Assembly (NCBI GenBank): GCA_021845905.1
Contig: JAJZVA010000006.1
Span: 74,264-138,263 of the forward strand
Direction of reading: 5' to 3'
Length of the DNA stretch: 64,000 nucleotides
DNA from: Pseudomonadota bacterium
GTDB lineage: Bacteria; Pseudomonadota; Alphaproteobacteria; Micavibrionales; UBA2020
Position numbers and translations under genes: made by a program. Position 1 is the stretch's first letter. The number at the start of each line of letters is the position of its first letter. The notes under the pieces were generated by a model. That model was not told where the DNA came from. It did not search any database and saw nothing but the letters and a program-made list of their open reading frames with translations. Shown here piece by piece: positions 3,806 to 51,204 of the stretch.

Positions 3806-3860
3806 TGGTGGCCCTGACCGGAATCGAACCGGTACGCCCGAAGGCTCACGATTTTAAGTC
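3806..3860 (-). tRNA. displaced 3' part of the resident tRNA-Leu(UAA) (anticodon loop to CCA)
   Basis: Minus strand reads GACTTAAAATCGTG-AGCCTTCGGGCGT-ACCGGTTCGATTCCGGT-CAGGGCC-A-CCA; TCGTG and CAGGGCC are complementary to CACGA and GGCCCTG of the 5' part at 51164-51204. Confidence 0.85.
3850..3860. repeat. att core copy 1 (gattttaagtc)
   Basis: Identical 11-mer at 3850-3860, 8341-8351 and 51164-51174; equals anticodon loop CTTAAAA plus flanking bases. Confidence 0.85.
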
Positions 3861-3918
3861 CTCTCATGATAGTCCTTACACATTGAATTTATTATACAAT
3901 TCACCATCAAAAAGTCAA

Positions 3919-3939
3919 CCGTGTAAGAACCCGTGTAAG
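3919..3939 (+). repeat. arm-type repeat CCGTGTAAG x2 (small element, distal end)
   Basis: ccgtgtaag at 3919-3927 and 3931-3939; third copy at 8235-8243 upstream of the integrase. Confidence 0.6.
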
Positions 3940-3992
3940 TTTTGAGAAGATTTTGAGGCGAGAATCCATCCTTTTTGCTCCCATAAAATGGC

Positions 3993-4030
3993 TTTGCGCC
4001 GCAACTGTAGAGTTGCGGCGCAAATTTTTT
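3993..4030 (+). terminator. rho-independent terminator-like hairpin
   Basis: 14-bp perfect stem tttgcgccgcaact/agttgcggcgcaaa, loop gtag, followed by TTTTTT (4025-4030). Confidence 0.55.
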
Positions 4031-4243
4031 AGCCTCTGGCTTATGAACACCTGTAAACCAGCCGCGTTCCGGCGATTTCTGCGGTGCTGTAGTCGGCCTC
4101 AAGGTCGCGGGCGATAAGGTCATAGTCCAGATAATAGCGGAGGGACTCCGGTATGAGCGCAACCTGAAAAAGCGGGATGCCCGCGACGGTAGCGGTTCGC
4201 GCTACCTGCTGGGGTCGCTGTATTTGCTGCTGGACGACAAGCC

Positions 4244-4684
4244 TTGTTGAACCAGTATATCCGCCAGTATGCGGAATTGCAGGTCAGGCAGGAAGAGGAA
4301 GCCCGCAAAATCGAAGCCAACAGGCAGTTCTATTCCATCATCATGAATATGAGCTACGCCCTCAACGGCGTTCCGCTCTGGCCTGTCACCGTCATGTCGC
4401 CACCGCCGGAAAAACGCCTTGACGAAAAGGCGTTCACAGCGACATTGCGCCAGAGAAGCAACAGCGAATTGCTTTCCACCGTCACGCGGCGATACGTCAG
4501 GCCGAAAATCGACCCGCCGATGGCGACGGTCAACCTGCGCACAAGCGTCCTTGAGGTCAAAGAAATCCTCCGCCGTGCGGGGTTACAGCCCGATGGAGGG
4601 AAATCCACCTTCGACCCGAAACAGAAAATCAAGGTAACGACGCCACCACCCAAGGCGTCTGCACGGTTCAACGCGAGGAGATAG
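4244..4684 (+). CDS. hypothetical protein, paralog of 36777..37130
   Basis: Shared block FTATLRQRSNSELL...ATVNLRTSVLEVKEILRR vs FTEAAYESRLQKKSNVELL...ATVALRQDVLQVKEPLRR; start uncertain (TTG 4244 or ATG 4343). Confidence 0.55.
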   Translation: MLNQYIRQYAELQVRQEEEARKIEANRQFYSIIMNMSYALNGVPLWPVTVMSPPPEKRLDEKAFTATLRQRSNSELLSTVTRRYVRPKIDPPMATVNLRTSVLEVKEILRRAGLQPDGGKSTFDPKQKIKVTTPPPKASARFNARR

Positions 4685-4687
4685 CGC

Positions 4688-5020
4688 ATGGCATGGACAC
4701 AATCAGGCGAATTCGTGGAATCCGACGTTGTGGAATGGACGGAAGCCATATGGCCTCCCAACCGTTCCCGCCGCCGGAAGAAATCCCGCCCGTGGGGAAA
4801 ACAAAAGGTCACGGCGCAAATTACAGCCATAGACGGCGATTTTGTGAAACTCACCGTCTTGCGCTCCGCTATCGTCGAAAACACTATCGGCTCGGCATTA
4901 AAACTCCACAAGGTCGGCACAACCATTACCAAGAAACGCCAAACCCTCCTGCGCGGCGAACCGGAAAGGCTCTTGTGGTCGGAAGAGGATGTACGAAAGG
5001 TACTTCTCCATCCCCAATAA
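4688..5020 (+). CDS. hypothetical protein, paralog of 41041..41520
   Basis: GAGGAG RBS; shares VVEWTE/VIRWTE, ...TITKKRQTLLRGEPERLLWSEEDVR vs TTITRGGAERLLWSDESAR with the large-element protein. Confidence 0.6.
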   Translation: MAWTQSGEFVESDVVEWTEAIWPPNRSRRRKKSRPWGKQKVTAQITAIDGDFVKLTVLRSAIVENTIGSALKLHKVGTTITKKRQTLLRGEPERLLWSEEDVRKVLLHPQ

Positions 5021-5123
5021 TAAGACAAGCATATGATAAATATAATGTTTTCTGCTATATTGCATGAATTTTAGTCTAAAAAATTGACATTTCTATATGG
5101 GTAAGCTATGATTAAGTTAAAGG

Positions 5124-5711
5124 ATGGAAACAATGGCAAGCGTCAACGAACTCAAAAAATATCTTCACTCCGGCAGGGTCTACCGCCGCGCTGATTTGGC
5201 GCGGTGGTCGAAGTCGGTTGACCGCCATTTGCAAGCACTGGTCAGGGACGGCACAGTTAAAAAGCTTTCCGGCGGCATCTACTACTGCCCAGAAAAATCG
5301 CGCTTCGGCGATTTACCCCCGCACGATGCCGACCTTATCCGCGCTTTTTTGAAGGACGACCATTTTTACATGGCCTCTCTCAACGCCTATAATTCCTTAG
5401 GCGTTGGCGCAACTCAGCTTTACAATGAAACGCTGGTTTATAACAACAAGCGGGATGGACGTATGCGCTTGAACGGGCGTCCCTACTACTTCATAAAACG
5501 ACGCTTTCCCAAAAAAGGAAGTCGGGAATTTTTAATGGTTGACCTTGTGAACAACTTGCATCTGATGGCGGAGGACACGGAAGAAGTCCTCAAACATGCC
5601 GCAAGAAACGCGCTTGAAATGGACAGGGATAAACTGATGCACGCCGTTCATGAATACGGCGGCGCACGAGCAAGAAAATTCTATGAAGGCGTATTCAGCC
5701 ATGCCAGCTAA
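5124..5711 (+). CDS. AbiEi-family antitoxin-like protein
   Basis: Immediately upstream of and overlapping an AbiEii-type nucleotidyltransferase; N-terminal wHTH-like region; family assignment from memory. Confidence 0.65.
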   Translation: METMASVNELKKYLHSGRVYRRADLARWSKSVDRHLQALVRDGTVKKLSGGIYYCPEKSRFGDLPPHDADLIRAFLKDDHFYMASLNAYNSLGVGATQLYNETLVYNNKRDGRMRLNGRPYYFIKRRFPKKGSREFLMVDLVNNLHLMAEDTEEVLKHAARNALEMDRDKLMHAVHEYGGARARKFYEGVFSHAS

Positions 5712-6660
5712 AATATATCTTCACCAGCATCCGGAATTTTCCGACCTTATCCGCGTCGTCGCGGGCGAGAAGAATATAGACCCTTACCTTGCCGAAAAAG
5801 ACTATTGGCTCATGCACTGTCTTTACGGACTGAAAAAGGCCGGATACGATTTTCAGCTTAAAGGCGGTACGTCGTTATCCAAGGGATACGGCATTATCCA
5901 CCGCTTTTCCGAAGACATCGACATTCAAATCACTCCGCTGGAAAGCTTGAATGTCAGAACGTCCAGAAACCACGACAAGGACAAAGACCGCCAAGGCCGC
6001 AAGGATTATTACGATTATCTTGCGGCGCATATTCGCATCGACGGCATTGTGAAAGTCGTGCGGGATACTGATTTTGACTCCCTGCCAAAATACTATAGCG
6101 GTGGAATCCGCCTTCACTATGAAGCAAAATTTTCTTCGGACGGTAGTGTGAAGGAAGGTATTTTACTGGAAGTCGGTTTCGATGCCATGACGCCGAACCA
6201 ACCGCTTAACATCGGATCATGGGCTTTGCGGCGAGCATTGGAGGCAAAGCTGGATGTGACGGACAACACGGCCTTGCAAATTCCCTGCTACGACCCTGCC
6301 TATACGCTGGTCGAAAAATTGCAGGCCGTCGTCACCAAACACCGCAACCTGCAAGAAAAGGGCGGTGCGTTCCCAACCAATTTTATGCGGCATTATTACG
6401 ATATTTACTGCCTGTTGCAGAATGACCATGTGCAAAGCTTCATTGGTTCGCCGGAATACCTCGCGCACAAGAAACGCCGTTTTCCGGCGGCTGACCAGCA
6501 AGCGCCGTTAAGCGAAAACGAAGCATTCTTATTGCATGATGAAGGCAAGAAGGCGCTTTACAAGAAAGAGTATGAGCGTCGCGCTTCGCTCTACTATCAA
6601 GGCCAACCGCCGTTTGAGGAAGTATTGACGGTTATCCAAAAGAATTTAAGGCGATTGTAA
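5701..6660 (+). CDS. AbiEii/AbiGii-family nucleotidyltransferase toxin
   Basis: LKGGTSLSKGYGIIHRFSEDIDIQI nucleotidyltransferase motif; 11-nt overlap with upstream gene. Confidence 0.8.
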   Translation: MPAKIYLHQHPEFSDLIRVVAGEKNIDPYLAEKDYWLMHCLYGLKKAGYDFQLKGGTSLSKGYGIIHRFSEDIDIQITPLESLNVRTSRNHDKDKDRQGRKDYYDYLAAHIRIDGIVKVVRDTDFDSLPKYYSGGIRLHYEAKFSSDGSVKEGILLEVGFDAMTPNQPLNIGSWALRRALEAKLDVTDNTALQIPCYDPAYTLVEKLQAVVTKHRNLQEKGGAFPTNFMRHYYDIYCLLQNDHVQSFIGSPEYLAHKKRRFPAADQQAPLSENEAFLLHDEGKKALYKKEYERRASLYYQGQPPFEEVLTVIQKNLRRL

Positions 6661-6662
6661 TT

Positions 6663-6979
6663 TGGTGCAGGCGGGGGGACTTGAACCCCCACGGGATTGC
6701 TCCCCACGGATTTTCATACCACTTCGGCTTTCGCCGCCACCGTCCGGTGTTCGTGGTCTGGACTATACCTTCGCCATACGGTTTGGATTTCGGCGTTCGC
6801 CTCATCTTCCGCTTAGACGCTGCCCGTCTAGTCTCTACACCTTCCCCTGTTCAGGGGCTTGGCTCGGGATTGCCATGTGAAAGGTTTCCCCGAGTTTGGG
6901 CAGTTCTGCTCCTCGGGTTTCCCACGGGGGCACTCAATTTCGTTCAAGTCCGTTGCGTATACCGTTCCGCCACGCCTGC
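6663..6979 (-). tRNA. tRNA-Leu(UAA) interrupted by a group I intron (exons 6979-6946 and 6714-6663)
   Basis: 5' exon GCAGGCG-TG-GCGGAACGGTATACGC-A-ACGGA-CTT; 3' exon AAAA-TCCGT-GGGGAGCAATCCCGT-GGGGGTTCAAGTCCCCC-CGCCTGC-A-CCA; all stems complementary; spliced length 86 nt. Confidence 0.85.
6715..6945 (-). ncRNA. group I intron (231 nt, no ORF) between U34 and A35
   Basis: Core blocks GGGGAAACC, GGCAATCCCGAGCCAAGCC, GGAAGGTGTAGAGACTAGACGGGCAGC, AAGGTATAGTCCAG, terminal G before AAAATCCGT; resembles cyanobacterial/plastid tRNA-Leu intron (from memory). Confidence 0.8.
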
Positions 6980-7004
6980 TTAATGAACTGGAATTGATTA
7001 TACT

Positions 7005-8207
7005 CTACAAATCTTCATCTTCAAGAAGCGGTTTTTTGGCCTTTTTGCCCTTTTTCTTGCGCCGCGTATTGATGGCGGCGGCATCAAGGCTGGTTTTGAT
7101 GTGCGAGGCGTAGTAATTTTCAATCATTTCCACGCTCGTCCGGCAGTTTTTGGCGATTTGATAAATATCCGCCCCTTCCATGAGGCGTAGGCAGATATAG
7201 GTATGGCGCAGACTGTAGGCCGTGCGCCTGCTCCCTTCCCTGTCGAATTTGAAATCCAACTCATTCAGGATGCGGTTGAACATTTCCCGATGTCCTTTGG
7301 GGAAAAGCCTGTCGGTCGGCTTGGGCTTTGCGTTCATTCTCAGCCTGTCCCTCAGGCGTTTGAAAGGAATGACCGCGCCTGCGGTGCTTTTACAATAACC
7401 GACACCACGCTTGCCGCGTACTTCGATTTCAAGGATTGTCTCGCCCGAGTCCTCGTCCTCGACAATGGTTACGTCCCGAAACTCAAGCCGTGAGGCTTCA
7501 TCGGGACGCAGGCCAGTATTGGCCATGAACAGCACATAGTCGTGCAACTGTGCTGACTCCCAAACCCAGCGTTTGCGCTTGGGTTTTTCCGCGCGTTCGC
7601 GCGTCGCCTGATAAAGGGTTTTATATTCCTCTGGTGAAAACCATGCGCGATGCGAGAGTTTTCCAGTTGTTTTATACGGTTCTGAAAGGTCAGGCAGGTG
7701 TTTCAACCAATCATGGCGCAAGGCTGTTTTCAGCACTTGCCGCAAGGTGACGATTTCTTGGTGCATCGTATTCCGCGCAGGCGGCTTGCCGTTGCGCTCC
7801 ATGCCTGTTTTACGTCGATGGATGCGGTATTCCTGCAAGCGTCCTGCGGTGATTTGAGAAAGCCCCATATCTCCGAAGAAAGGCAACAGGTGGACGGCCA
7901 GACGTTGTTCGTGTCCCTTCACGTATACCTTGTTCCGGTTACCCTCGGTGATAATGGGATATTCTTTCAGGAATTGCTCGGCGGCCTCGTTGAAAGTCTT
8001 CTCCTCGACAAGCTCGCCGCGCTTGTGCTTGCCCCGCAGTTCCAGATACCAGTCCTCGGCAAAGTCCTTGGCTTTGCCAAGGCTCTCCTCATGGGTCGTA
8101 ATGCGGAAGTTTTTCTCATTAAGGAAAGCGGAACACTGCCAATAGCGGCTGTCGTCGCGCTTGTAAACGTGGATACGTCCGTCAAAAATCGTGTGGCTCT
8201 CGGTCAT
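7005..8207 (-). CDS. tyrosine recombinase/integrase
   Basis: FMANTGLRPDEA (Arg box), AYSLRHTYICLRL (HxxR), NCRTSVEMIENYY (Tyr); stop is 25 nt from the tRNA 5' end. Confidence 0.9.
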   Translation of the reverse strand: MTESHTIFDGRIHVYKRDDSRYWQCSAFLNEKNFRITTHEESLGKAKDFAEDWYLELRGKHKRGELVEEKTFNEAAEQFLKEYPIITEGNRNKVYVKGHEQRLAVHLLPFFGDMGLSQITAGRLQEYRIHRRKTGMERNGKPPARNTMHQEIVTLRQVLKTALRHDWLKHLPDLSEPYKTTGKLSHRAWFSPEEYKTLYQATRERAEKPKRKRWVWESAQLHDYVLFMANTGLRPDEASRLEFRDVTIVEDEDSGETILEIEVRGKRGVGYCKSTAGAVIPFKRLRDRLRMNAKPKPTDRLFPKGHREMFNRILNELDFKFDREGSRRTAYSLRHTYICLRLMEGADIYQIAKNCRTSVEMIENYYASHIKTSLDAAAINTRRKKKGKKAKKPLLEDEDL

Positions 8208-8234
8208 AGCACCTCCGGTAATAAAGTTTCAAAA

Positions 8235-8243
8235 CCGTGTAAG
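8235..8243 (+). repeat. arm-type repeat CCGTGTAAG (small element, integrase end)
   Basis: Same 9-mer and orientation as 3919 and 3931. Confidence 0.55.
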
Positions 8244-8340
8244 TACTGTGAAAGTGAAAATTCGTGGTTTATGTCATCTTCAATTATACTAACTAATTGA
8301 AAATAAAGTCTTAATTTCCGCTAAGACCTTATAATATCAC

Positions 8341-8402
8341 GATTTTAAGTCCTGTATATGATTTTATAAGCTATTGATTTTATTGACTATTATAGGATTT
8401 TA
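8341..8402. repeat. att core copy 2 followed by a GATTTTA ladder
   Basis: gattttaagtc at 8341-8351; GATTTTA recurs at 8341, 8360, 8376, 8396; 8392-8407 ataggattttaccgtg resembles junction ataggattttaagtcgtg at 51161. Confidence 0.6.
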
Positions 8403-8403
8403 C

Positions 8404-8430
8404 CGTGCTAATGTGTTAGCCAATGTGCTA
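8404..8430 (+). repeat. arm-type repeats (C/T)GTGCTA (large element, distal end)
   Basis: cgtgcta 8404-8410, tgtgtta 8412-8418, tgtgcta 8424-8430; matching tgtgcta at 51093 and 51104. Confidence 0.55.
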
Positions 8431-8740
8431 ATTGCTATGTTTCCGCTCTCCCAAGGAGCTTGCCCAACGGGTGAAAAAGCACCGGATGCGGCGTCCGCGA
8501 TGTGTAAGAGTAAGCTACTGTAATAGCTACATAATTCTAATAATCGGAGAGCGCCGTGTTAGCCCTGTGCTGATTTTTGCGCTAGCAATCCAAAAACTGC
8601 GGCTAGGTACCTATCGAATGGGGTTACTGACGCCGGTCCGCCTGGCCCATGGGGAGCATCATTCCGCTAGTCGCCACTTGCCCCACCCCCGCCGATCTTC
8701 TGCGCGGCACCGTTGACACGCTAAGGATATCTATTTTGCA

Positions 8741-8787
8741 TTTTGATGCACAAAACTAGGCAATATCCCTTGTTTTGATGCATAAAC
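8741..8787. promoter_or_regulatory. two operator-like palindromes sharing TTTTGATGCA
   Basis: TTTTGATGCACAAAA (8741-8755) and GTTTTGATGCATAAAC (8772-8787). Confidence 0.3.
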
Positions 8788-8794
8788 TGTTGCG

Positions 8795-8878
8795 GACGGC
8801 CAAGCCAAGCAGAACCTGCGCGTCAGCGTCACGCGAGGCAAGCGTCTTACAACCATTTTGAGGCCGTCGTCACGGTAG
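8795..8878 (+). pseudogene. orphan 3' fragment of a UvrD-like helicase gene (inverted duplicate of the gajB-like 3' end)
   Basis: 8800-8861 is a perfect reverse complement of 14137-14198; translates DGQAKQNLRVSVTRGKRLTTIL vs DDQAKQNLRVSVTRGKRLTTIL in ORF 14093..15910. Confidence 0.8.
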
Positions 8879-8893
8879 TTGAACACGCCTCCG

Positions 8894-10135
8894 TCACGCA
8901 ATCAGGGACGCGGCTGCCTCGGCTTGTTCGGTCAGGTAGTGACGGAGTTCGGCGAGCAATGCGCGTTCCGTGGGACTTACACCTGCGAGTAGATCGTCAG
9001 CCTCTTCGATCGCCTTAGGAAGGGTCAGCCAGGGCACGGTCCCGTCCCCAACCATGAGACGGCGGGCAATGGCGATCTCGTAATCACGGCGGGCGGCATG
9101 GGGCATGACATACGCCGCCTCGACGAATACGAGACGCTGGCCGAGCGCCCGCAGGCGCCCATCGCCGAGCCGGCCGATCAGCGGCGGGCGGTGGTGCCAT
9201 TCCAGATCGTGAAACCGGTCAAGCAGCGCCTGATCGTCATTGCCGGTGAAGCCGTCATAAATCTGCTCCTCGACATGGGGCGACGGCTCTTTTTCTTCGC
9301 GCGTCCGGCCAAAGGCGGCGATAAGGCGCGCGGCCAGATTATCATCGGACAGCGCGGCGAAATCGTCCGGGTCCTGCGAGAGGTCGAAGACCAGCATTTC
9401 AGAGCCGTTGTCCGGGTTCATGCCGATGCCGGTGACGAACCACGAGTATCCCTTGCCGTAGAAAAAATCTGTGAGCACGAAGACGTCCTCGTCGAGCGCG
9501 AAATCCGCGACCGCCGCCTTCTGGGCAAAGCGCACGAAATTCGACCAGTGCTCCGGCACGCGCTCGGCGATCAGGCGACACATATGGATGGTCGCCTCCA
9601 CATCGCCCATCGCATCGTGCGCGGCGCTGTGATCGAAGCCGTTGGCAGGCGCGAGCCGGTCGAGCTTGAAGACGGGCCTGCCGCGATCATCGAGCGGGAT
9701 GCTCAGGGTGTTTGGCGCGAACCGTGCGACTGCCTGAATCATCCGCAGGCTGTCGGTGCGGCAATTTCCGTTCGTATTGGTCAGGTAGGGTGCGTGCAGG
9801 GTCTTATACAGCGCCTGGCGCAACAGGTGCTCGTCAAAGCCGAGCGAGTTATGCCCGATGAATATCGCGGGCGACCATTCGGCCATCTTCGCCCTGATCG
9901 CGCGCACCATCCGGTAGTGGCTCGGCAGCGCGGGATCGGTAAGCCGGCCGATGCCGATTCCCGTGACGCGCACCGCGCCAGGCGACGGCACGACGTAAGG
10001 TAAAAGGCGGGAGCGGATTTCAAAGCGGTCCAGCTCGTTCAGGTCGTGATCCGTCCTGATTGCGCCGAACTGGAGTATCTGGTCGAAGGCGGTGTTGGTG
10101 CCGGTCGTCTCGGTATCATAAAACACGAAACTCAT
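8894..10135 (-). CDS. exodeoxyribonuclease I (SbcB)-like DEDDh exonuclease
   Basis: FYDTETTG, GHNSLGFDEHLL, HDAMGDVEAT DEDDh motifs; colinear with E. coli ExoI as recalled, somewhat shorter. Confidence 0.8.
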   Translation of the reverse strand: MSFVFYDTETTGTNTAFDQILQFGAIRTDHDLNELDRFEIRSRLLPYVVPSPGAVRVTGIGIGRLTDPALPSHYRMVRAIRAKMAEWSPAIFIGHNSLGFDEHLLRQALYKTLHAPYLTNTNGNCRTDSLRMIQAVARFAPNTLSIPLDDRGRPVFKLDRLAPANGFDHSAAHDAMGDVEATIHMCRLIAERVPEHWSNFVRFAQKAAVADFALDEDVFVLTDFFYGKGYSWFVTGIGMNPDNGSEMLVFDLSQDPDDFAALSDDNLAARLIAAFGRTREEKEPSPHVEEQIYDGFTGNDDQALLDRFHDLEWHHRPPLIGRLGDGRLRALGQRLVFVEAAYVMPHAARRDYEIAIARRLMVGDGTVPWLTLPKAIEEADDLLAGVSPTERALLAELRHYLTEQAEAAASLIA

Positions 10136-10158
10136 CGCTGGCCCTCCGCCGGCTGGAA

Positions 10159-10686
10159 TTAGGCAAACAGATTTCCGAGCCTGAAGCGCATCGCCGCCGT
10201 GCTGACCTTGTATTCCTTGGCGAGCGCGCTGACGGCGCCCTCGTCGTCAATGTCGAATGACTGCCCCTGCAATGAACGCGCAAGAAATTCTTCGGGCATC
10301 AGAAGTTCGGCGGCGAAGAAATTGGCCTCGATCTCCATTTCATCGATTCCGGCCGAAGACACCGAGTCGCGCATCAGCATCGGGAAGCCCTTATCGACGT
10401 GGATTTGCTTTGTGATCTCGGCGCGGTGAAGCACGAGATGCCCGACTTCGTGGGCGAGCGTAAATCTTTGTCGGTTGGGATGATGAAGGGCGTTGACGCC
10501 GATTATCGGCGTGCCGTCCTTGACATAGACCATGCCCGAGAGTTCGTCGTCGAGCGGGGAAAACCGCAACTGCGCCTCAAGCCCCTTGGCGATACGCTCG
10601 ACCGGAACCGGGGCCGCCATGATGCCCTGCTCGTCCCGTAATTCCTTTACGCGCTTCTGGATCGCGCTGCGCCGTTTCGTATTCAT
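10159..10686 (-). CDS. ImmA/IrrE-family zinc metallopeptidase (CapP-like)
   Basis: HEVGHLVLH motif; 4-nt overlap with upstream XRE gene. Confidence 0.8.
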   Translation of the reverse strand: MNTKRRSAIQKRVKELRDEQGIMAAPVPVERIAKGLEAQLRFSPLDDELSGMVYVKDGTPIIGVNALHHPNRQRFTLAHEVGHLVLHRAEITKQIHVDKGFPMLMRDSVSSAGIDEMEIEANFFAAELLMPEEFLARSLQGQSFDIDDEGAVSALAKEYKVSTAAMRFRLGNLFA

Positions 10687-11060
10687 GCGTTCTCCCTCCC
10701 GTTGTTGGCGCCCTGCTGCATGGCATCGCCCATCAGGCTCAGGACCTCGCGGCGCTGTTTTTCGGTCAGCCCGTCTTCGGCAAGCGGCAGCGGTGACGAG
10801 GCGCCTGCCTTCGGTGCGCGCGCCTGCGGCGCGAGCAGGAGCTGCGCCGGCGAATCGAGTTGCAGAGCCGACGCCAGCGCAAACAGGTGGTGGACAAGCA
10901 CCTGCTGCCGCCCCGCCTCAATATTGGCGAGCGAGGCGCGGGATATGCCGATCTGCTTTGCGAGCTGGTCCTGGGTCTGGCGCAGACTTTTGCGCAAGTC
11001 CCTGATTCGCGCTCCTAAACTTTGATAGATGTGGCCGGCTTCCATAGGTTTTTCTACCAT
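10683..11060 (-). CDS. XRE-family HTH regulator (CapH-like)
   Basis: LRQTQDQLAKQIGISRASLANIEAGRQ HTH; divergent from the Ubl operon. Confidence 0.8.
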   Translation of the reverse strand: MVEKPMEAGHIYQSLGARIRDLRKSLRQTQDQLAKQIGISRASLANIEAGRQQVLVHHLFALASALQLDSPAQLLLAPQARAPKAGASSPLPLAEDGLTEKQRREVLSLMGDAMQQGANNGRENA

Positions 11061-11092
11061 GCAAACGGAAGCGGCGTCAAGATCGCAAACAT

Positions 11093-11159
11093 AGACGTTT
11101 GCATTATAAACTTATTAAACGATTGCATTTTTGACATTTCCGGCGCGCTGTGGCATAAA
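11093..11159 (+). promoter_or_regulatory. promoter of the Ubl operon with adjacent direct-repeat operators
   Basis: TTGACA 11131-11136, 17-nt spacer, CATAAA 11154-11159; ACG(T/A)TTGCATT at 11095-11105 and 11119-11129. Confidence 0.5.
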
Positions 11160-11219
11160 GGAAGGGTCTGCGGGGCCGTCGGCGCCGCGCTTTCTGAAGT
11201 ACGGTGTAAGGAGATTCCG

Positions 11220-11519
11220 ATGGCGCACGAGCATCAACACGAGCATCAACACGAGCATGGACATGGTGGGCATGGCGGGGACGAAGTCACGCTTGAGGTT
11301 GGCACGCCCAAGGGGCTGTTCACTGGCACCTTCCCGAAAACAGCCAAGATTGAGGACGTGATCGCGGCGGCTGTCGAAGCCAAGGGCATCGACAGCGGCG
11401 AATCGCTAGAGCTTGTCTATAACGGCGATGTGCTGCAGCCGGTGCAGCGCACGCTCGTCAGTTTCGGCCTCGCCGGTACAGTGAAGCTCGAACTGGTTGC
11501 GACCGGCTCCGGGGTGTGA
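11220..11519 (+). CDS. bilA: ubiquitin-like beta-grasp protein with His-rich N-terminal tail
   Basis: AAGGAG RBS; MAHEHQHEHQHEHGHGGHGG then ~80-aa Ubl-sized domain ending LELVATGSGV; first gene of Ubl-E2-JAB-E1 operon. Confidence 0.7.
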   Translation: MAHEHQHEHQHEHGHGGHGGDEVTLEVGTPKGLFTGTFPKTAKIEDVIAAAVEAKGIDSGESLELVYNGDVLQPVQRTLVSFGLAGTVKLELVATGSGV

Positions 11520-11522
11520 GCG

Positions 11523-11966: not shown

Positions 11967-11970
11967 GACG

Positions 11971-13820: not shown

Positions 13821-13857
13821 CGGTCCGATAGGCTGGCATTGGCGCTAGGCCCCGATT

Positions 13858-17768: not shown

Positions 17769-17806
17769 ACTAAACTCCTTCTAATTGTTATGCTTACGGA
17801 GCGCCG

Positions 17807-44700: not shown

Positions 44701-44747
44701 GGAGCAAGCGCCAGAGCGAAAGACAGACAGAGCAGACGAAAGCGCAT
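41712..44747 (-). CDS. VirD4/TraG-type coupling protein fused to a C-terminal CbbX/SpoVK-like AAA+ module
   Basis: Signal-like MRFRLLCLSFALALAPVPATC (start 44747; track start 44855), TM segment, IVARTRAGKGTRVIVPTLL Walker A, Pro-rich linker, then VFTGNPGTGKTTVARIIGRIY...GVLFIDEAYSL. Confidence 0.8.
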   Translation of the reverse strand: MRFRLLCLSFALALAPVPATCRAAAMSDGWIAHAPTVAQVFRDVRGSNEIDTAARQAAAFEILRNAIQVWTGALDIRSMPPRAAAKFREYSRAFGEKPYGLKFNDGNCSGKSCIRPQFFEKEYAYSANTDFMRDVLGRYFAPEYVAAQVNWESEAQRRGQNPVSSANAGSSVKPNPWITASAYVLVYGGGAFVIGFFGWLMLRREEEPDDSLPPLSDNYGTADWAEHRIVERRGENMFQGVNFGKSSRPDIPADAPGAPVTSSPETHTLIVARTRAGKGTRVIVPTLLNYTGSMLVIDPKGENAAITARTRRNRHKQTVHIVNPWGEMESRYRSLGFARATFNPLDALDRNDPNAVAFAQSLAAIICPPATGKESFWQGSAANVLAGVFLWIADAPGEQKTLARARQIVTMSRAEFLKILVKMTASTAYHGAVSEMVSQYIDLAPETYSGIMSNLAENTKFLSDPQIKQSTASSSFSMKKLREEATTVYLVIPHDRIQTHATWLRLVIASAMQGMKSHKATSVPRRRCMFLIDEFGSIGRIDDIPRDIALMSGYGLDFTLIVQGLDQLKDHYGDSSGTILSNCAFKWFCFVNELDTAKYLSESLGKATVRTVATSMSSGETKGGATSGESTNFGEMARPLLMPDEILNLGRDVAILLNPRGLPEYLRPIDYWNLDRAYDHLKHMYPYNMGKAPPLQYDENPYFSKGQQKPPQPPPQPSSPPPKPPREKQPAAPAPVETKQDPFADLRGLTGLAPVKKQVETVANLEKVNQARRKAGLPVPERSNHLVFTGNPGTGKTTVARIIGRIYRDLGVLKKGHCIEVSRGDLVAEYIGQTAPKVAEAVEQALDGVLFIDEAYSLISSDSNNDFGIEAVTALLKFMEDYRDRLVVIAAGYREEMQGFVDSNPGLKSRFKTFIDFPDYEPSDLMEIFRGLCARNGMELTGKAPPKLKKTIHALYTGRGKGFGNGRAVRNLFEVCMERQATRLADAHDVGIEDLKQLVAADIPGPEEVRT

Positions 44748-45173
44748 CTGAATCAGTCCCCGGGGCATCGCCACAGGCGGCTCGATGGCAGACAAGGCCG
44801 AAAGCTCTGTAGTCCGTCCGACGCCAGAAGCGATAGTGCTGCGGAAGTATTGCATACGCCAGTCCCTGAACCTCTGAAAAAAGCGCGTTGGAGACCTGCC
44901 GCTTTGATTGTGTCCGCGCGGTAATGATTCAAATCCATGATCTCCCCCCCTTTTCAGGGAGCCCCGATTCCGGACTTCGATGGTGCAGCGTTAGCACCGG
45001 CGCGCCTTTGGGCGCTGCAAGCTTGTTGCCAAGCTCCTTCTCTTCGTTGCGGTCCACTCATGTTGCGCATGCACAGCATGGTGGATGCAGCTCAAGGCGG
45101 CCGTCGCTCTCCACGGCTGCGTGAAGTCCGCGATCGGCGCGGGCAGAAGAAAAGGAGAGACACCATGAGAGTC

Positions 45174-45356
45174 ATCACCGCAGCAGAACTGGCCAACAAA
45201 ACGAATTTCCAACTGAGCGCCCTTTACGCGAGGCTCAAGGAGGAACTGTCACGCACAGAACCGGGCAGCTACGAGCACGAAGTTTTATCCATCTCGCTCG
45301 AAAACGTCCGCCGCGCATACACGACGACTCCCAAGTTCAAGCCCCCGAGGATGTAA
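45174..45356 (+). CDS. small hypothetical protein (60 aa)
   Basis: AAGGAGAG RBS; MRVITAAELANKTNFQLSALYARLKEEL... Confidence 0.45.
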   Translation: MTAAELANKTNFQLSALYARLKEELSRTEPGSYEHEVLSISLENVRRAYTTTPKFKPPRM

Positions 45357-45443
45357 TTCCCGGCCTCCAAAACAAGGCGCCCCGACCGGCAATCGCCGGT
45401 CGGAGTTTCGGCGGAGCAGGTGGCACGGGCGAACCCCGCTCGC

Positions 45444-45950
45444 TCACGCGCAACGATAAACAAGCCGCGTTCCGGCAATGGTCGTTTCGCTGTAGTCCAT
45501 GCCGAGGTCACGGGCGATGGCGTCATAGTCGAGATAATTGCGGATGGGTTCGGGGATTTCTCCGAACAGTCCTTCATCGACAAATTGCTCGGCGAGTTCG
45601 CGCAGGCTGTCTATTTGATAAAGATCAACGTCGAAGTCGTCCGGATCGCCGGAAGCCAGGTCGAAGCGGTATCCGCATTCGCCGACGGCGATGATGACTT
45701 TCTGCTTCTGATTATCGTCCCACGCGTCGCAGGCGTCCAGAAATTGCGGGAAGTTGCCTTGGTTGACGCCGAGCGCCTCGAACAGCTTCGCGTCGATGCT
45801 TTCGCCGTCGATGAATTGCAGTTCAAATCCCTCCACGGGGCAGCCAGCGGAATTGCGTAGCTTCGCGGCTTTCTCCGCGTATTCGGACGCGGTTCGGAAG
45901 TAGAAGCCCGTGGCGCTGATGTCGTAAGGTTGTGCGAATAATTCGGTCAT
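45444..45950 (-). CDS. ardA: ArdA-family antirestriction protein
   Basis: Acidic 168-aa protein; family recognised from overall pattern incl. MTELFAQPYDISATGFYF N-terminus. Confidence 0.75.
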   Translation of the reverse strand: MTELFAQPYDISATGFYFRTASEYAEKAAKLRNSAGCPVEGFELQFIDGESIDAKLFEALGVNQGNFPQFLDACDAWDDNQKQKVIIAVGECGYRFDLASGDPDDFDVDLYQIDSLRELAEQFVDEGLFGEIPEPIRNYLDYDAIARDLGMDYSETTIAGTRLVYRCA

Positions 45951-45960
45951 GGCTGCCCCC

Positions 45961-46230
45961 TCACGCTGCCAGTAGGGTTTCGGCTTCGAGCATCACGTCG
46001 ATGTAATCGACGGGACCGCCGGCGGCGGTGATGATCGAACGCGGCAGGGCGTGCGCGTAAAGCCCGCTTGGCGCGATGGGAAGCGGTGCGTCGGTGGGAT
46101 AGATGCTCCGCACCTGAAGGTGCGCGAAGTCTTGTCCGGTGACGCTGGCCGGAAGCCAGTCGGGCTCATAGGTGATTTCCAGCAAGTGGCCCTTCCAGTC
46201 CATGCGGTGTATTTCGGTCGTGCGTTTCAT
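45961..46230 (-). CDS. hypothetical protein
   Basis: 89-aa ORF directly upstream of ardA and downstream of leader element copy B. Confidence 0.5.
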   Translation of the reverse strand: MKRTTEIHRMDWKGHLLEITYEPDWLPASVTGQDFAHLQVRSIYPTDAPLPIAPSGLYAHALPRSIITAAGGPVDYIDVMLEAETLLAA

Positions 46231-46294
46231 CGGCGTTTTCCTTTTTTCTGTTTGAACGATCCCCTTCGGGATTGAGTCCCCGCCTCACGCGCAA

Positions 46295-46396
46295 GGGCGC
46301 GGTGTCACACAAGAAAATCGGGGGGAACCTTCAGGGGGAACCGACCCCTGAACGAAGTTCGGGGCCTGTTTTCTTGTTGACGCCAGAAAGCGCCCG
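46295..46396. promoter_or_regulatory. conserved structured leader element, copy B
   Basis: GGGCGC-GGTGTCA-C-ACAAGAAAA...CCTTCAGGGGGAACC...TTTTCTTGT-TGACGCC...GCGCCC; compensatory changes relative to copies A and C. Confidence 0.65.
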
Positions 46397-46512
46397 CGCG
46401 TGATAAAAGGGGCCAGACCGACACTGAAGGGGCGTTCAAAACCTGAGAGAAAAAGGAAAACGCCGGTCGCGTGAACGACCGGCGTCATGGACGGCGATGC
46501 GTCCGTTGATGA

Positions 46513-48330
46513 TTACCGGAGGATGTCCGGCAACCAGCCCGTGCCGGCGATTTCACGCTCAGCAAGTGCGGCCAGCTCGGCCTTCTTGAGCTTGTCCCAT
46601 GCGGGCGCAACCGGCTGCTTGCGCGCGTCTGTCAGGGCATCGAGGATTTGCGGTTTGCTGATGCGGCTGAAATATCCCTCGGCCGTCGGGGTGAACCACG
46701 CCTTCATGTCGAGCTTGACCGCGACGGAGAGTTTACTGGCATGGTCCAGTCTCGGGCAGTCCGGACGATCCGTCTTGCGCTGCACGGCATTGACCATGCA
46801 GGCCGCGCAGAATGTCAGGAGATCGAGTAACACGGACTGATCCTGCTCCAGACACCAGTTCCAGAGATCATCCGGAGTACCGGGGATACGTTGGCCCCAG
46901 GATTCACGGGCTCGTTCAAGACGCTGGAAAGCAGTCGAGCCTTCGACAAGATTCAGCGGCTGCGTTTTGCCGGAAAGTTCAAGGGCCGTAGCGTGTCCTT
47001 GATCGAATGTGTCCAGCACAAGGGCGTACACGATCGTGGCAAGACCTTTGTCCGGTGCGTCCAGCAAGGTTGCGGCAAGCGCTGCCGACCTATGGGCGGT
47101 CAGGCTCTCGACCAGCGCCGCCGACAATCCGGGAGTCTCCGCTTCAACGGCTGCGGTATCCGCATCGCCGGGAACGCCAGAGACTTTTGCCTTTTTGGAC
47201 TGTTTCGGCATGTCCTCCGGCTTCACAAAACCGCGCTCGATCTTCACCTTGCCGGCGTGATCGAGGGATACCACGGTGCCCGCGATCGCAAGCTGTTCCG
47301 GCGTCCAGACGCCGTCGCGGTCTTCGATGTCGGCGATGAGCTTCTCCAGCTCGTCGAGACGTTCCGGCGCTTCGCCCGCGTCGGATGCGTACCACGCGTC
47401 ATTCAGGGCGGTGTATTCCGCCTGAAGGCTGTCGAACCGTTGCTGTTCGTCTTCGGTCAGGGGAACGGGCTCGGGATAGATACGCCTGTAAGCGGAACTT
47501 TGCGCGTATCCGAACTCGGGCATGACTTCGATCCATTTCCAGCCCTCGGCGCGGACCGGCTTGGCCTTCTTCTCAAGCTTCTCCGTCACAAGGCTGTCCA
47601 GCAGGGCGGCGTCTTCGATATAGACGCCGTTGTCGTCGTCGCTGAACAGGTCGCGCTTGAGATTGCCACCGGCCTTTTCGTACCCGTTCAGGGTCACGAA
47701 TTTCACGCGCTTGTCGGTTGCGGCGATGTCGTTCTCCGTCAGGGCGTCGCGGATGTCGCGGGCATCGTTGCGTTCGGGGTCGTAATCCGCCAGCACGCGT
47801 TCCTGCGCTTCGTGGTCGTCGGTCACGGCGAAGGCCATGACGCATTCCAGCGTCAGGTCGCCGTCCCGGTACGCCTTGATGATGCTCGGGCTGACACGGG
47901 CCAGTTTCAGGAGCTTCTGGACGTGGGCCTCGCTGCATCCGAAACGGGCGGCAATATCCGCAGCCGGCATACCGTCATCGGTCAGGGAACGGAACGCCTC
48001 GAACTGGTCGGCGGGGTGCATGTCTTCCCGCATGACGTTCTCGGCCAGGCTCAATTCCGTTGCGTTGTCGGCCGCCGTGATGCGGCATGGCACCGGAAAT
48101 GTCGCCTGTAGATCACCGGTCTTGGCGAGTTGCTGCAAGGCTTTCAGGCGTCTGCCGCCGGCGACGACGGCGAACTTCTTGCCGTCCTTGCGGACGACGA
48201 GATTTTGCTGAAGGCCGTGGGCTTTGATGCTGGCGGCCAGCGCGTCGATGCCGTCCTTGTTCCGGATTTTCCGAACGTTGCCGGACCAGACGGTCAGCTT
48301 GTTGAGCGGTACATTTATAATGTCGGTCAT
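46513..48330 (-). CDS. ParB/Srx N-terminal domain protein
   Basis: VPLNKLTVWSGNVRKIRNKDGIDALAASIKAHGLQQNLVV ParB-type N-domain; 605 aa. Confidence 0.75.
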   Translation of the reverse strand: MTDIINVPLNKLTVWSGNVRKIRNKDGIDALAASIKAHGLQQNLVVRKDGKKFAVVAGGRRLKALQQLAKTGDLQATFPVPCRITAADNATELSLAENVMREDMHPADQFEAFRSLTDDGMPAADIAARFGCSEAHVQKLLKLARVSPSIIKAYRDGDLTLECVMAFAVTDDHEAQERVLADYDPERNDARDIRDALTENDIAATDKRVKFVTLNGYEKAGGNLKRDLFSDDDNGVYIEDAALLDSLVTEKLEKKAKPVRAEGWKWIEVMPEFGYAQSSAYRRIYPEPVPLTEDEQQRFDSLQAEYTALNDAWYASDAGEAPERLDELEKLIADIEDRDGVWTPEQLAIAGTVVSLDHAGKVKIERGFVKPEDMPKQSKKAKVSGVPGDADTAAVEAETPGLSAALVESLTAHRSAALAATLLDAPDKGLATIVYALVLDTFDQGHATALELSGKTQPLNLVEGSTAFQRLERARESWGQRIPGTPDDLWNWCLEQDQSVLLDLLTFCAACMVNAVQRKTDRPDCPRLDHASKLSVAVKLDMKAWFTPTAEGYFSRISKPQILDALTDARKQPVAPAWDKLKKAELAALAEREIAGTGWLPDILR

Positions 48331-48365
48331 GATGGTTCTCCCTTCTGAAAAGAAGAAGAGCGCCG

Positions 48366-48596
48366 TTAAGCGCTCTTCCCTTCCGTTTCCTCGGGTTGCA
48401 CAGCGGCTTTTGCTTTGGGCGGAAATGCCGCGTAGCGTTTGCCGGCGATCAAGAGGGTGAAGCCGTTGCCCTTCTTGTGGGCGAAGCCTGCACCTGCGGG
48501 TTTGCCGGATTTTTCGCCGTTGGCTGCGTTCTCGAAGATGTAGAAGTCGGGAACCTGTTTGGTTTTGGCCGTTTGGTTTTCAGTGGTCGTTGTCAT
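48366..48596 (-). CDS. hypothetical protein
   Basis: GGAG RBS then ATG at 48596: MTTTTENQTAKTKQVPDFYIF...; first gene after leader element copy C. Confidence 0.5.
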   Translation of the reverse strand: MTTTTENQTAKTKQVPDFYIFENAANGEKSGKPAGAGFAHKKGNGFTLLIAGKRYAAFPPKAKAAVQPEETEGKSA

Positions 48597-48654
48597 TTTA
48601 GTCTCCTTCGTTTGCATTACCCTTTCGGGCGATGCCTCCGATCAGCCAGCAGCG

Positions 48655-48730
48655 GATGCAGCGTCACACAGGAAAATTGGGGGAGACCTTTAGGGGGAAC
48701 CGAGGCTTCCTGTTGACGCGGGAAGCGGCC
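48655..48730. promoter_or_regulatory. conserved structured leader element, copy C
   Basis: GCGTCA-C-ACAGGAA...CCTTTAGGGGGAACC...TTCCTGT-TGACGC; near-identical to copy A. Confidence 0.65.
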
Positions 48731-49244
48731 GCGCATGGCAGGGGGCTCGAACATGCACGAAGGGTGGATGCAAATAGCGGAAGGAGATGATGTGCTGACA
48801 ACGCCGGAGAACCACGGCTCGCAAACAGGAACGCGTCATCATTCCTGAGAAGAACGGACGCGCGGAAAAGACCGTTTGATCACCCGTTCGCTCCACCACG
48901 GCAGATTAGGTGAACCGATCCCGTAGATCGCATCCGTCAACGTTGCGGCCTCCGGCAAGCAGCCGCGCAACCTCGTTTGGATACGGAAGGGAATGTCGAT
49001 AACGGGTGTGCTCACACTTCCGAAAGGAAAGCTCGGCGGCGCCCCCACAGCGCAACGCCCGAGCTGCTGATTGTCAAATGAGGAAAATGTCGAACCCGGG
49101 AATCGTCCGATCCGTGTTCGACGCGGCACGCGCAACGGTCCCGTAGCTTTATCGTGCCTGTCGCCGTTAGGCCGTTCGGCCCGGCTCCGGAGCGCCGTCC
49201 AGCGCTCCCGACAACTTGAAGATTCTCAAGCAGGGAAAGGAAGA

Positions 49245-49558
49245 TGGTGCGGGCGGCCGGACTTGAACCGGCACAGGCCTTTCGGCCCTACGGATTTTCA
49301 TACCACTACGGCTTTCGCCGCGTTCGCCGCTGCGCCTCTCGGCACAGGACGCTTTGTGGTCTGGACTATCCCTTCACCATAGCCGTTGCTTTAGGTGCTG
49401 CCCGTCTAGTCTCTACACCTTCCCGTTTCCGGGCTTGGCTCGGGATTGCCATGTGAAAGGTTTCCCCGACTTTGAGCAGTTCTGCATCGCGGGTTTCCCC
49501 GCGCGCACTCAATTTTCTGGTTTAAGTCCGTTGCGTCTACCAATTTCGCCACGCCCGC
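49245..49558 (-). tRNA. tRNA-Leu(UAA) interrupted by a group I intron (exons 49558-49524 and 49298-49245)
   Basis: 5' exon GCGGGCG-TG-GCGAAATTGGTAGACGC-A-ACGGA-CTT; 3' exon AAAA-TCCGT-AGGGCCGAAAGGCCTGT-GCCGGTTCAAGTCCGGC-CGCCCGC-A-CCA. Confidence 0.85.
49299..49523 (-). ncRNA. group I intron (225 nt, no ORF) between U34 and A35
   Basis: Shares TCGGGGAAACCTTTCACATGGCAATCCCGAGCCAAGCCC and GGGAAGGTGTAGAGACTAGACGGGCAGC with the 6715-6945 intron; GAAGGGATAGTCCAG; ends ...GGTATG. Confidence 0.8.
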
Positions 49559-49746
49559 GTGGTACATCCACCTATAGCCGCAACCCACTTAACAACCAAG
49601 AAAAATCGAGCATTTCTGCGGATTCCGGCATTACGGAAAGGCAGGGTAGCAGCCTTCGCCGCCTGAGGTTTTGGCTAGCATAACACAATAGGAGTCGTAC
49701 CTGCTCGGCGCGCAGACGCCGATGCGGCACGCCTGTACGCGTCCGC

Positions 49747-51069
49747 CTATCTTGCCTTTGGGGGCGGAGTCCGCGGTCGCGGCTTGCGCACGTTTATGGC
49801 TCCGGCATCGATGCTGTCTTTGATGTGAGAGGCGTAATACTTCTCGATCATCTCGACACTGGTACGGCAGTTTTTCGCGATCTGATAGATGTCGGCGCCT
49901 TCCATGAGCCTCAAGCTGATATAGGTATGACGGAGGCTATAGGCGGTTCGCTCGTTGCCCTCCCGGTCTGTCTTGAGATCGAGTTCGTTCAAAATGTCTC
50001 TAAACAATTGCCTGTGCGTTTTCGGGAACACCAGGTCCGTCGGTTTCGGAAGGACGGTTGTTGTGTCCGGCTCCTCGTTCGATGCGCCTGACGAAGAAGA
50101 TGATCGAAGGCTTTCGCTCATCTTTGCCGGACGCCGGCGCTTCTCCAAGCGCCTGAAGGGCTCTACTGCGCCAGGCATGCTTTTGCAGTAGCCGACACCA
50201 CGCTTGCCGCGAACGGTGATGACAAGAATGTCGTCTTTGCCGTTTTTGGCGCTTCCGGACTCGATTTCCACGTCCCGAAACTGAAGCCGCAGCGCTTCGT
50301 CGGGCCGCAGTCCGGTGTTCGCCATGAACAGCACAAAGTCATGGAGTTGCTCGCACGACCACTTCCAGCGCGGCTTTGGAGGATTCTTGGCGCGCGTTCC
50401 CGTTGCCGTATAGAGCTGCCTGTACTCTTCCGCAGAGAACCAGGCGCGATGGGATACCTTGGATGAGGATTGGTATGGCGCGGATAGATTGGGAAGATGG
50501 TCAAGCCACCCCTGCCGATTTGCAGTTTTCAGTATCTGACGGAGGCAGACTATTTCCTGATGGAGGGCGCTGCGCGATGGAGGCTTTTGCCTTTCAAAGC
50601 CCTTGGACGAACCGTTCTTCTTGATATGCGCCGCAAGCTTGTGTTGGTCCGTACGGGACATTCCCGTCTTCATGCGGTGTATGCGGTAGTCCTGAACCTT
50701 GCCTGCCGTTATATCGCTGAGAACCAAATTGCCGAAGAACGGATTCAGATGGTTGTTGATCCTGTCCTTGTGGCAGGCGACATATACCTCGCTTCTCTGC
50801 CCTTCGGTAATGGTCTCGAATTCATCGATGAAGCGTTCGGCTGCTTCCCGGAAGGTCTTCCCTTCCTTCAACTCGCCGGCTCGATATTTTCCCAGGAGGC
50901 TTAGGTACCAGTCTCGGGCTACATCCTTTGCGCGGGCGAGGCTTTCTTCTCTCGTCGTGGTGCGCCGCTGGCGTCCGGCCACTGAACACGAGCACTGCCA
51001 ATGCGGACTGTTCTTCCGCATGTAGAGCTGGACGCGATTGTCCATAAGGGAGTGGCGGGTGGTGTCCAT
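49747..51069 (-). CDS. tyrosine recombinase/integrase
   Basis: Homologous over its length to 7005..8207 (FMANTGLRPDEA, AYSLRHTYISLRLMEGADIYQIAKNCRTSVEMIEKYY) with a Ser-rich insertion. Confidence 0.9.
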   Translation of the reverse strand: MDTTRHSLMDNRVQLYMRKNSPHWQCSCSVAGRQRRTTTREESLARAKDVARDWYLSLLGKYRAGELKEGKTFREAAERFIDEFETITEGQRSEVYVACHKDRINNHLNPFFGNLVLSDITAGKVQDYRIHRMKTGMSRTDQHKLAAHIKKNGSSKGFERQKPPSRSALHQEIVCLRQILKTANRQGWLDHLPNLSAPYQSSSKVSHRAWFSAEEYRQLYTATGTRAKNPPKPRWKWSCEQLHDFVLFMANTGLRPDEALRLQFRDVEIESGSAKNGKDDILVITVRGKRGVGYCKSMPGAVEPFRRLEKRRRPAKMSESLRSSSSSGASNEEPDTTTVLPKPTDLVFPKTHRQLFRDILNELDLKTDREGNERTAYSLRHTYISLRLMEGADIYQIAKNCRTSVEMIEKYYASHIKDSIDAGAINVRKPRPRTPPPKAR

Positions 51070-51092
51070 CGAAAGGCCTGTAGACGCTTGTT

Positions 51093-51110
51093 TGTGCTAG
51101 ATATGTGCTA
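51093..51110 (+). repeat. arm-type repeats TGTGCTA x2 (large element, integrase end)
   Basis: tgtgcta at 51093-51099 and 51104-51110. Confidence 0.55.
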
Positions 51111-51163
51111 AGTATCTATAGCGCCAAATGCCTGAATATACAAGGAAATATTATTTTACATAG

Positions 51164-51204
51164 GATTTTAAGTCGTGTGCGTCTACCAGTTCCGCCACAG
51201 GGCC
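51164..51204 (-). tRNA. 5' part of the resident tRNA-Leu(UAA), ending in att core copy 3
   Basis: Minus strand GGCCCTG-TG-GCGGAACTGGTAGACGC-A-CACGA-CTTAAAA-TC, then CTATGTAAAATAAT (no tRNA 3' half). Confidence 0.85.

Follow-up and report, generated by a model that had tools for sequence, protein, structure and literature searches.

Tandem elements in a split tRNA-Leu(UAA) gene

We analyzed a 64,000-nt stretch of an assembled Pseudomonadota genome (positions 74,264 to 138,263 of contig JAJZVA010000006.1, assembly GCA_021845905.1), hereafter the window, in which two tandem integrative elements, termed A and B (Table 1), interrupt a resident tRNA-Leu(UAA) gene within its anticodon loop. To judge from its UvrC relatives, the host is an uncultured alphaproteobacterium. 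On the minus strand, one end of the insert carries nucleotides 1-41 of a class II tRNA, the 5' half of tRNA-Leu(UAA), and the other carries a short core followed by the variable arm, T arm, acceptor strand and CCA. A first-pass annotation of the window had read the two pieces in this way, and all its coordinates and sequences proved correct. Joining 51204-51164(-) to 3849-3806(-) in silico, as it had proposed, gave an 85-nt tRNA-Leu(taa) in ARAGORN. No tRNA was called by ARAGORN at any of the three real junctions, in agreement with the earlier statement that neither junction restores the gene; the host 3' part lies displaced by 47 kb from its 5' half, and the gene is rebuilt at neither end.

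The 11-mer GACTTAAAATC is present in exactly three copies in the window, all on the minus strand (51174-51164, 8351-8341 and 3860-3850); shuffled windows contained 0.01 matches on average, and three copies arose in 0 of 100 shuffles. This 11-bp core, GA-CTTAAAA-TC, is the only sequence common to the attachment sites attP and attB and corresponds to the anticodon loop with two flanking pairs. As first proposed, its middle copy divides the insert into units of 4.5 and 42.8 kb, each ending in an integrase. The integrase genes, both encoding tyrosine recombinases, lie 95-134 nt inside the 5'-half-proximal junction of their units. IntA and IntB match the Phage_int_SAM and Phage_integrase domains weakly, the family alignment retains the R, K, H/R and Y positions, and an NCBIfam search returned no useful integrase subfamily. 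While the core is common to A and B, their arm repeats differ (CTTACAC/TTTCAC in A, TTAGCAC/TAACAC in B), which suggests that each integrase has its own arm sites.

The split gene and the tandem elements of the first-pass annotation thus stood, but its account was incomplete in a way that changes the biology of the locus, having missed an intron-bearing tRNA-Leu(UAA) gene after each integrase. In both A and B, a complete gene of this type follows int at a distance of 25-190 nt and in the same orientation. A group I intron of 231 nt (A) or 225 nt (B) separates U34 from A35 in its anticodon loop, at the exact spot of the integrase crossover core. The Rfam model RF00028 matched just after each integrase stop codon, at 49533-49342(-) in element B (54.2 bits, gathering score 50, E=5.7e-11) and at 6955-6750(-) in element A (45.9 bits, E=1.7e-8). 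Intron-aware ARAGORN (-i) called both genes as tRNA-Leu(taa), with i(35,231) for A and i(36,225) for B. The A gene reads GCAGGCG...ACGGACTT, a 231-nt intron ending in GGTATG, and AAAATCCGT...CGCCTGCACCA; the B gene reads GCGGGCG...ACGGACTT, a 225-nt intron with the same ending, and AAAATCCGT...CGCCCGCACCA. In each case, the exons join to a perfect cloverleaf. Default tRNA finders miss both genes, and the conclusion that the window has no tRNA, drawn from zero calls by default ARAGORN and hinting at a host devoid of tRNA-Leu(UAA), was overturned by Rfam and ARAGORN -i; it is true only of intron-less genes.

A consensus fold computed from an alignment of 40 intron-bearing genes, the relatives being described below, comprises 79 pairs and shows compensatory changes at 42. 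Among its helices are the acceptor, D and anticodon stems, closed across the intron, and hairpins that remain paired although they vary in length. The P1 U-1.G wobble (alignment columns 35/51) is present in 39 of 39 sequences, one further row having a masked gap. Of the 40 genes, 39 have a G immediately before the 3' splice site (before AAAATC). The element introns match the Leu.3Ug type of group I intron and presumably splice. A promoter scan located a promoter-like TTGAAG-16-TATAAT at 7024-6997, before the tRNA gene of A, and relatives have a recurrent motif like TTGG-N17-TATAG ahead of the tRNA; the element tRNA presumably has its own promoter. Because each element brings a complete gene with the same anticodon, the host is very probably not left without tRNA-Leu(UAA).

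Table 1 Features of the window
Feature	Position	Strand	Details
Resident tRNA-Leu(UAA) 5' half, attL	51164..51204	-	nt 1-41; core 51174-51164; identical 5' half in intact genes L018, L106-109
Element B	8352..51163	-	~42.8 kb; integrative defence island; boundaries uncertain within the 11-bp core
Element B P' arm	51070..51163	-	TTAGCAC/TAGCAC repeats (51111, 51099)
IntB	49747..51069	-	440-aa tyrosine recombinase, 57% identical to IntA
Element B tRNA-Leu(UAA) gene	49245..49558	-	5' exon 49558-49524, group I intron 49523-49299 (225 nt), 3' exon 49298-49245
Coupling protein (T4CP), TraG/T4SS-DNA_transf	41712-44855	-	1047 aa; C-terminal fusion to AAA ATPase and AAA_lid_6 domain
MobA/VirD2 relaxase	38187-39701		element B
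IS110-family transposase	31337-32464	-	inside element B
Hma	17807-27575	-	HmaC 17807-21103 (N-terminal HEPN domain), HmaB 21100-24057, HmaA 24054-27575; PADLOC
Gabija	14093-17768	-	GajB 14093-15910, GajA 15897-17768; PADLOC
Bil-like four-gene operon	11220-13820	+	99 aa, 147 aa, JAB peptidase, ThiF-type E1
Element B P arm	8352..8500	-	TTAGCAC/TAACAC repeats (8431, 8418, 8411)
Middle core copy	8341..8351	-	junction of B right end (P arm) and A left end (P' arm); same junction in independent contigs L002, L005, L006, L007, L011
Element A	3861..8340	-	~4.5 kb; integrase, intron-bearing tRNA-Leu, AbiEii/AbiEi-like pair, two small unknown open reading frames
Element A P' arm	8208..8340	-	TTTCAC x2 and CTTACAC repeats (8259, 8253, 8243)
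IntA	7005..8207	-	400-aa tyrosine recombinase
Element A tRNA-Leu(UAA) gene	6663..6979	-	5' exon 6979-6946, group I intron 6945-6715 (231 nt), 3' exon 6714-6663
Element A P arm	3861..4010	-	CTTACAC x2 (3939, 3927), inverted GTGTAAG (3881)
attR	3806..3860	-	core 3860-3850 and displaced tRNA-Leu(UAA) 3' remainder 3849-3806 ending in CCA

A look-up of the 123-aa host protein that adjoins the tRNA 5' half returned an ENA metagenome contig (L018). It has the same uvrC flank, an intact tRNA-Leu(UAA) gene and then, directly, the 3' flank of the window. Intact intron-less genes also lie beside uvrC in sister lineages (L106-109 and L114-116; UvrC 89% and 79% identical). The comparison with related genomes suggested in the first-pass annotation therefore yielded the uninterrupted gene with both flanks contiguous, and, together with the in silico join, bears out its claim that the halves were once a single gene. 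A B-like element splits the same gene in a further lineage (L110-113; UvrC 90% identical). In other genomes or samples, the 5' half and core are followed directly by element A without B (L003, L004, L012-14, L017 and L019), and in five of these (L003, L004 and L012-14) A stands alone between the two tRNA halves. Such A-only genomes, which back the division into tandem elements, contain the same intron-bearing tRNA gene as A in the window. The junction of the B right end with A through the core recurred as listed in Table 1, and that of the 5' half with the B left end in L001 and L015, with B-type left junctions also in L110-113. The observed junctions are exactly those predicted for site-specific recombination at the core, and empty and occupied sites coexist in the same population. 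As A occurs alone in other genomes and the two integrases are only 57% identical, A and B are independent elements. A-only and B+A forms were seen among these assemblies and B-only genomes were not, so the probable order is that A was resident first and B then integrated at its hybrid left junction.

Two further observations concern this locus. In the metagenome-assembled genome (MAG) GCA_027431735.1, the region is broken into two contigs, one of which (L001, DAIAHB010000020.1) ends ~400 bp after the IntB stop codon, where the intron-bearing tRNA lies. Short-read assemblies are probably interrupted by the similarity between the intron-tRNA genes of A and B, and such breaks may hide modules of this kind in MAGs. 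Just 3' of the host tRNA 3' half (~3700-3790, minus strand), degenerate remnants resembling tRNA 3' halves are present as a tandem AATTAAAATTCAGC(A/G)GCGGAGCC and as ...TCGGTCGATTCCGGTCAGCGCTACCA, whose acceptor is mutated. The empty site of L018, whose contig ends inside the first repeat, has at least part of these remnants, which may be scars of older integrations.

A widespread integrase family

IntA has thousands of homologues in different phyla, many of them 65-75% identical. Scanning GTDB species representatives for this integrase family returned at least 563 loci, 80 of which were fetched and analyzed; members occur in Alphaproteobacteria, Acidobacteriota, Planctomycetota, Binatia, Gemmatimonadota and other taxa, and the carriers in culture include Pelagibacterium luteolum CGMCC 1.10267 (L072) and Tunturibacter empetritectus M8US30 (L083). 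In most of the 80 loci, a tRNA-Leu 5' half lies within the 100-200 bp before int, ends in the anticodon loop and gives way to non-tRNA DNA. The anticodon stem ends in GA (G30, A31) in 53 of 54 target 5' halves, and the loop is followed by TC in most, not all, of the junctions printed in full. Because GA is near-universal and TC is not found in all, we take the conserved family core to be GA-CTYAAAA-TC or a shorter version. Across several phyla, ~55 independent loci lose similarity immediately past the core.

An intron-bearing tRNA-Leu gene follows int immediately in 44 of the 80 loci, as detected with a profile built from these very introns, and in 38 of the 40 loci with a split host Leu(UAA) half. 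The element tRNAs have a conserved GCGGGCG acceptor, and the host halves differ by taxon. Loci L024 and L030, from different hosts, have an identical element tRNA with the same flanks, from which it follows that tRNA and integrase move together. A mirror-image form of restoration, in which the tRNA after int would be rebuilt from an element-borne 5' half, is ruled out as a general explanation by this pair, where tRNA and flanks are identical and the host 5' halves differ; the argument does not extend to L080, whose downstream tRNA is of host type. A second fully delimited element was found in L025, which spans 11,032 bp with a matching host 3' half at its far end. Under a strict test of acceptor and anticodon-stem pairing, only this element and those of the window survive as delimited. 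The apparently minimal, 1.6-1.9-kb integrase-only elements from a looser in silico excision screen were artefacts that joined a host 5' half to the 3' exon of the element's own tRNA.

Some relatives target tRNA-Leu(CAA). These carry an intron-less tRNA-Leu(CAA) in L024, L030, L080 and L099 and in about nine loci where the host half was not recognized by pattern, and nine other loci have no element tRNA. In three CAA-targeting loci (L029, L031 and L032), only the last ~16 nt of the element tRNA (…CCCTCCGCGCGCACCA) follow int, and the flank beyond them is that of L024 and L030. These loci no longer have a spare tRNA-Leu(CAA), a loss plausibly tolerated since tRNA-Leu(UAA) can read UUG. A minority of the family lies beside intact tRNA genes (Arg, Phe, Cys, Met and Leu-CAA) in the ordinary, restoring layout.

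Several loci depart from the common arrangement. In L020 (positions 100-280) and L041 (9760-9880), int is preceded by a split 5' half of element type (GCAGGCG/GCGGGCG...ACGGACTT); in L020 this half is identical to the 5' exon of the same element over all 34 positions, and L041 also has two stacked 5' halves. As the split half is of element type, an intron-less copy of an element-type tRNA was the target at both loci. Eight Planctomycetota loci (L047, L049, L055, L058, L071, L077, L089 and L092) show DNA resembling a P arm, the core, a P' arm, int and an intron-less tRNA-Leu, with no host 5' half, a layout that looks like a chromosomal attP ~150 bp upstream of int; L058 also has, 1.4 kb upstream, an attR-like site composed of P arm, core and tRNA 3' half. 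Truncated extra copies of the 3' part of the intron with the 3' exon were detected in L061 (+3326..+3630 from the int start), L065 (+4014..+4234) and L049 (-627..-500) and are probably relics of rearranged or decayed tandem elements. Lastly, a Sulfitobacter MAG (L086) contains an intact tRNA-Met(CAU) gene just upstream of int and a second one just downstream, which may represent the same design of carrying a spare at a different tRNA.

Probable replacement of the host tRNA and a proposed role of the intron

The best overall explanation, in which we have considerable confidence, is that two integrative elements of the same family split tRNA-Leu(UAA) in tandem, each bringing an intron-bearing replacement; that the intron hides this replacement from the integrases is a hypothesis. 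In this scheme, the element intron would splice itself out and the element tRNA would take over the decoding of UUA and UUG, complementing the loss of the host gene; TTA is rare yet used in host genes, at ~1.6 per 1000 codons. Integration would thereby be harmless, as in tRNA-dependent lysogeny, and an intact host gene would return on precise excision. Under the hypothesis of hiding, the intron would divide the would-be core, GGACTT|AAAATCC, in the DNA and make the replacement gene unusable as attB for integrases of the family.

The closest known system is tRNA-dependent lysogeny, described for actinobacteriophages such as Fionnbharth (Cluster L) by Guerrero-Bustamante and Hatfull in 2024, in which a tyrosine integrase uses an attB within a host tRNA gene, the core is ~10 bp, no tRNA is reconstructed and a phage tRNA of the same isotype complements the loss; its target is tRNA-Lys in mycobacteria (PMC10865867). 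Of its six defining features, which include a temperate phage and a need for the element tRNA in stable integration or survival, four recur here: a tyrosine integrase adjacent to attP (IntA and IntB), an attB overlapping a host tRNA gene (as seen at the empty site L018 and in the sister species), a short core of 11 bp with no functional tRNA rebuilt at attL or attR, and an element-borne tRNA-Leu(taa) in both A and B, here each with an intron. In contrast to the phage system, A and B are non-phage elements, a 4.5-kb AbiE element and a probably mobilizable defence island; the targets are tRNA-Leu(UAA) and tRNA-Leu(CAA) across several phyla; and the putative replacement lies immediately after int with a group I intron at the crossover site.

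Other systems resemble the arrangement in part. Classical islands, integrative and conjugative elements and prophages in tRNA anticodon loops (Islander-type, PMC4383910) likewise recombine within the 7-nt anticodon loop, have their integrase beside the tRNA junction, carry arm-type repeats and accumulate in tandem at a single site. Their attP, however, carries the 3' 40-45 nt of the tRNA and regenerates the gene, whereas here identity is limited to 11 bp (15-16 bp for A) and the gene remains broken. The Leu.3Ug introns of cyanobacteria and plastids share the insertion point (CUU/intron/AAAA), the P1 U-1.G wobble, the G before the 3' splice site, a length of about 200-270 nt and the absence of an open reading frame, but those described here reside in a mobile-element tRNA gene directly linked to an integrase whose target is the allele without an intron. 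The Leu.3Ug type is listed in a survey of 5,292 bacterial tRNA introns, which mentions no link to integrases (bioRxiv 10.1101/2020.01.27.920355). IStrons, in which a group I intron is fused to an insertion sequence transposon (PMC4227781), are a comparable alliance of intron and DNA mobile element that renders insertion harmless; the IStron intron splices the element itself out of the host transcript, whereas here the intron sits in a spare cargo tRNA gene, with no RNA-level rescue of the host gene. Finally, in regulated gene integrity or active lysogeny (skin, SPbeta and heterocyst elements), a gene is also interrupted in a manner that precise excision would reverse, but those elements supply no substitute, while here one is supplied and excision is unneeded for function. 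In our literature search, of incomplete coverage and hence compatible with a prior description, we found no account of an integrase coupled to an intron-bearing tRNA-Leu.

More tentatively, and at not quite an even chance, we propose for the family at large that it destroys and replaces host tRNA-Leu(UAA) and that the intron is kept by selection, since breaking the 11-bp core hides the replacement while the RNA still splices to a normal tRNA. In support, the would-be core is kept split in 40 of 40 aligned intron-bearing genes, the core reads CACTTAAAATG (C30:G40) in each of the four Leu(UAA) genes that elements carry without an intron, against GA (G30, A31) at the end of 53 of 54 target halves, and L020 and L041 show an intron-less element-type tRNA itself used as a target. 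The alternative that the replacement is real and its intron a hitch-hiker, selfish or inherited and without protective role, is a serious one, to which we assign a chance somewhat below even. It draws on the position of the intron, which is that of the classical Leu.3Ug intron (bioRxiv 10.1101/2020.01.27.920355), and on CAA-type relatives that tolerate an intron-less tRNA with an intact core. The all-or-none pattern of the UAA-type element tRNAs, with either an intron or C30:G40, and the use of intron-less element-type tRNAs as targets speak against a passive intron.

Several points weigh against replacement or immunity as proposed here. The RF00028 score of the element A intron lies under the Rfam gathering cut-off of 50, and a second chromosomal tRNA-Leu(UAA) gene, if present, may make the element copies dispensable. 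No attP circles were found with a degenerate pattern designed to match attP of either element, which returned six unrelated metagenome contigs and no viral contigs; current mobility is therefore unproven. With regard to immunity, the intron occupies the classical cyanobacterial Leu position, possibly by mere inheritance, a single lineage may account for the four C30:G40 cases, and the CAA-targeting relatives L080, L099 and L038 carry an intron-less tRNA with an intact core.

The remaining explanations question the replacement itself or the locus. A gene-integrity switch, comparable to active lysogeny or bldA, in which the split would remove tRNA-Leu(UAA), leave UUA unread and be reversed by regulated excision, accords with the rarity of TTA, the prospect of a precisely rebuilt gene and the coexistence of empty and occupied sites in one population. 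We nevertheless consider it improbable, as both elements bring a complete tRNA gene with the same anticodon, so that no deficiency is expected, and the module of int and tRNA is conserved in 38 of 40 related loci. Decayed ordinary islands, with the split an accident of one genome, would be in keeping with the family members found in a restoring layout beside intact tRNAs; the abrupt end of similarity after the core in ~55 independent loci of several phyla, junctions identical across independent assemblies and a conserved replacement tRNA that argues for design make this very unlikely. That the window is a chimera of host and foreign DNA joined at a short repeat is hardly credible despite its metagenomic origin and the two-contig MAG described above, since independent assemblies of different samples (NCBI, ENA and Logan) contain each of the three junctions and the A-only, B+A and empty forms fit site-specific recombination exactly.

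The replacement of a tRNA by a non-restoring integrative element, described in 2024 for mycobacteriophages only, would thus extend to non-phage islands in many phyla, with int and the replacement tRNA forming a conserved module and not a curiosity. The patchy tRNA-Leu(UAA) group I introns outside cyanobacteria would gain a concrete vehicle in these modules, and the intron a testable selective reason, the shielding of a spare gene from its own integrase. If true, the elements would put a bacterial group I intron to cellular 'use' and also offer the tRNA-Leu(UAA) intron a horizontal route outside cyanobacteria. For genome annotation, island finders that seek a regenerated tRNA with a displaced 3' fragment will miss such elements, and tRNA finders without an intron search will report tRNA-Leu(UAA) as missing from such genomes. 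The combination of int, an 11-bp core and a self-protecting tRNA cassette could become a compact integration tool.

Cargo of element B

Element B is probably a mobilizable, non-phage defence island, to judge from its gene content. In addition to a relaxase, it encodes a coupling protein whose fusion to an AAA ATPase and an AAA_lid_6 domain is an unusual architecture. No capsid, tail or terminase genes were found in A or B. Type IV secretion system families matched none of the large open reading frames of B, all of which have other functions, and no frame of VirB4 size was present; the small ones were not searched exhaustively. Gabija and Hma lie side by side (14093-27575(-)) and look complete, with PADLOC E-values of 1e-235 to 0. 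The neighboring plus-strand operon resembles the Bil ubiquitin-like antiphage system, with weak matches for BilC and BilD only (E~1e-14) and none for its two small proteins. Further cargo of B includes a ParB-like protein, ArdC, an ArdA-like protein, AbiEi and ImmA/IrrE. A match to the osmY small RNA at 46228-46298 is weak (E=0.1) and probably due to chance.

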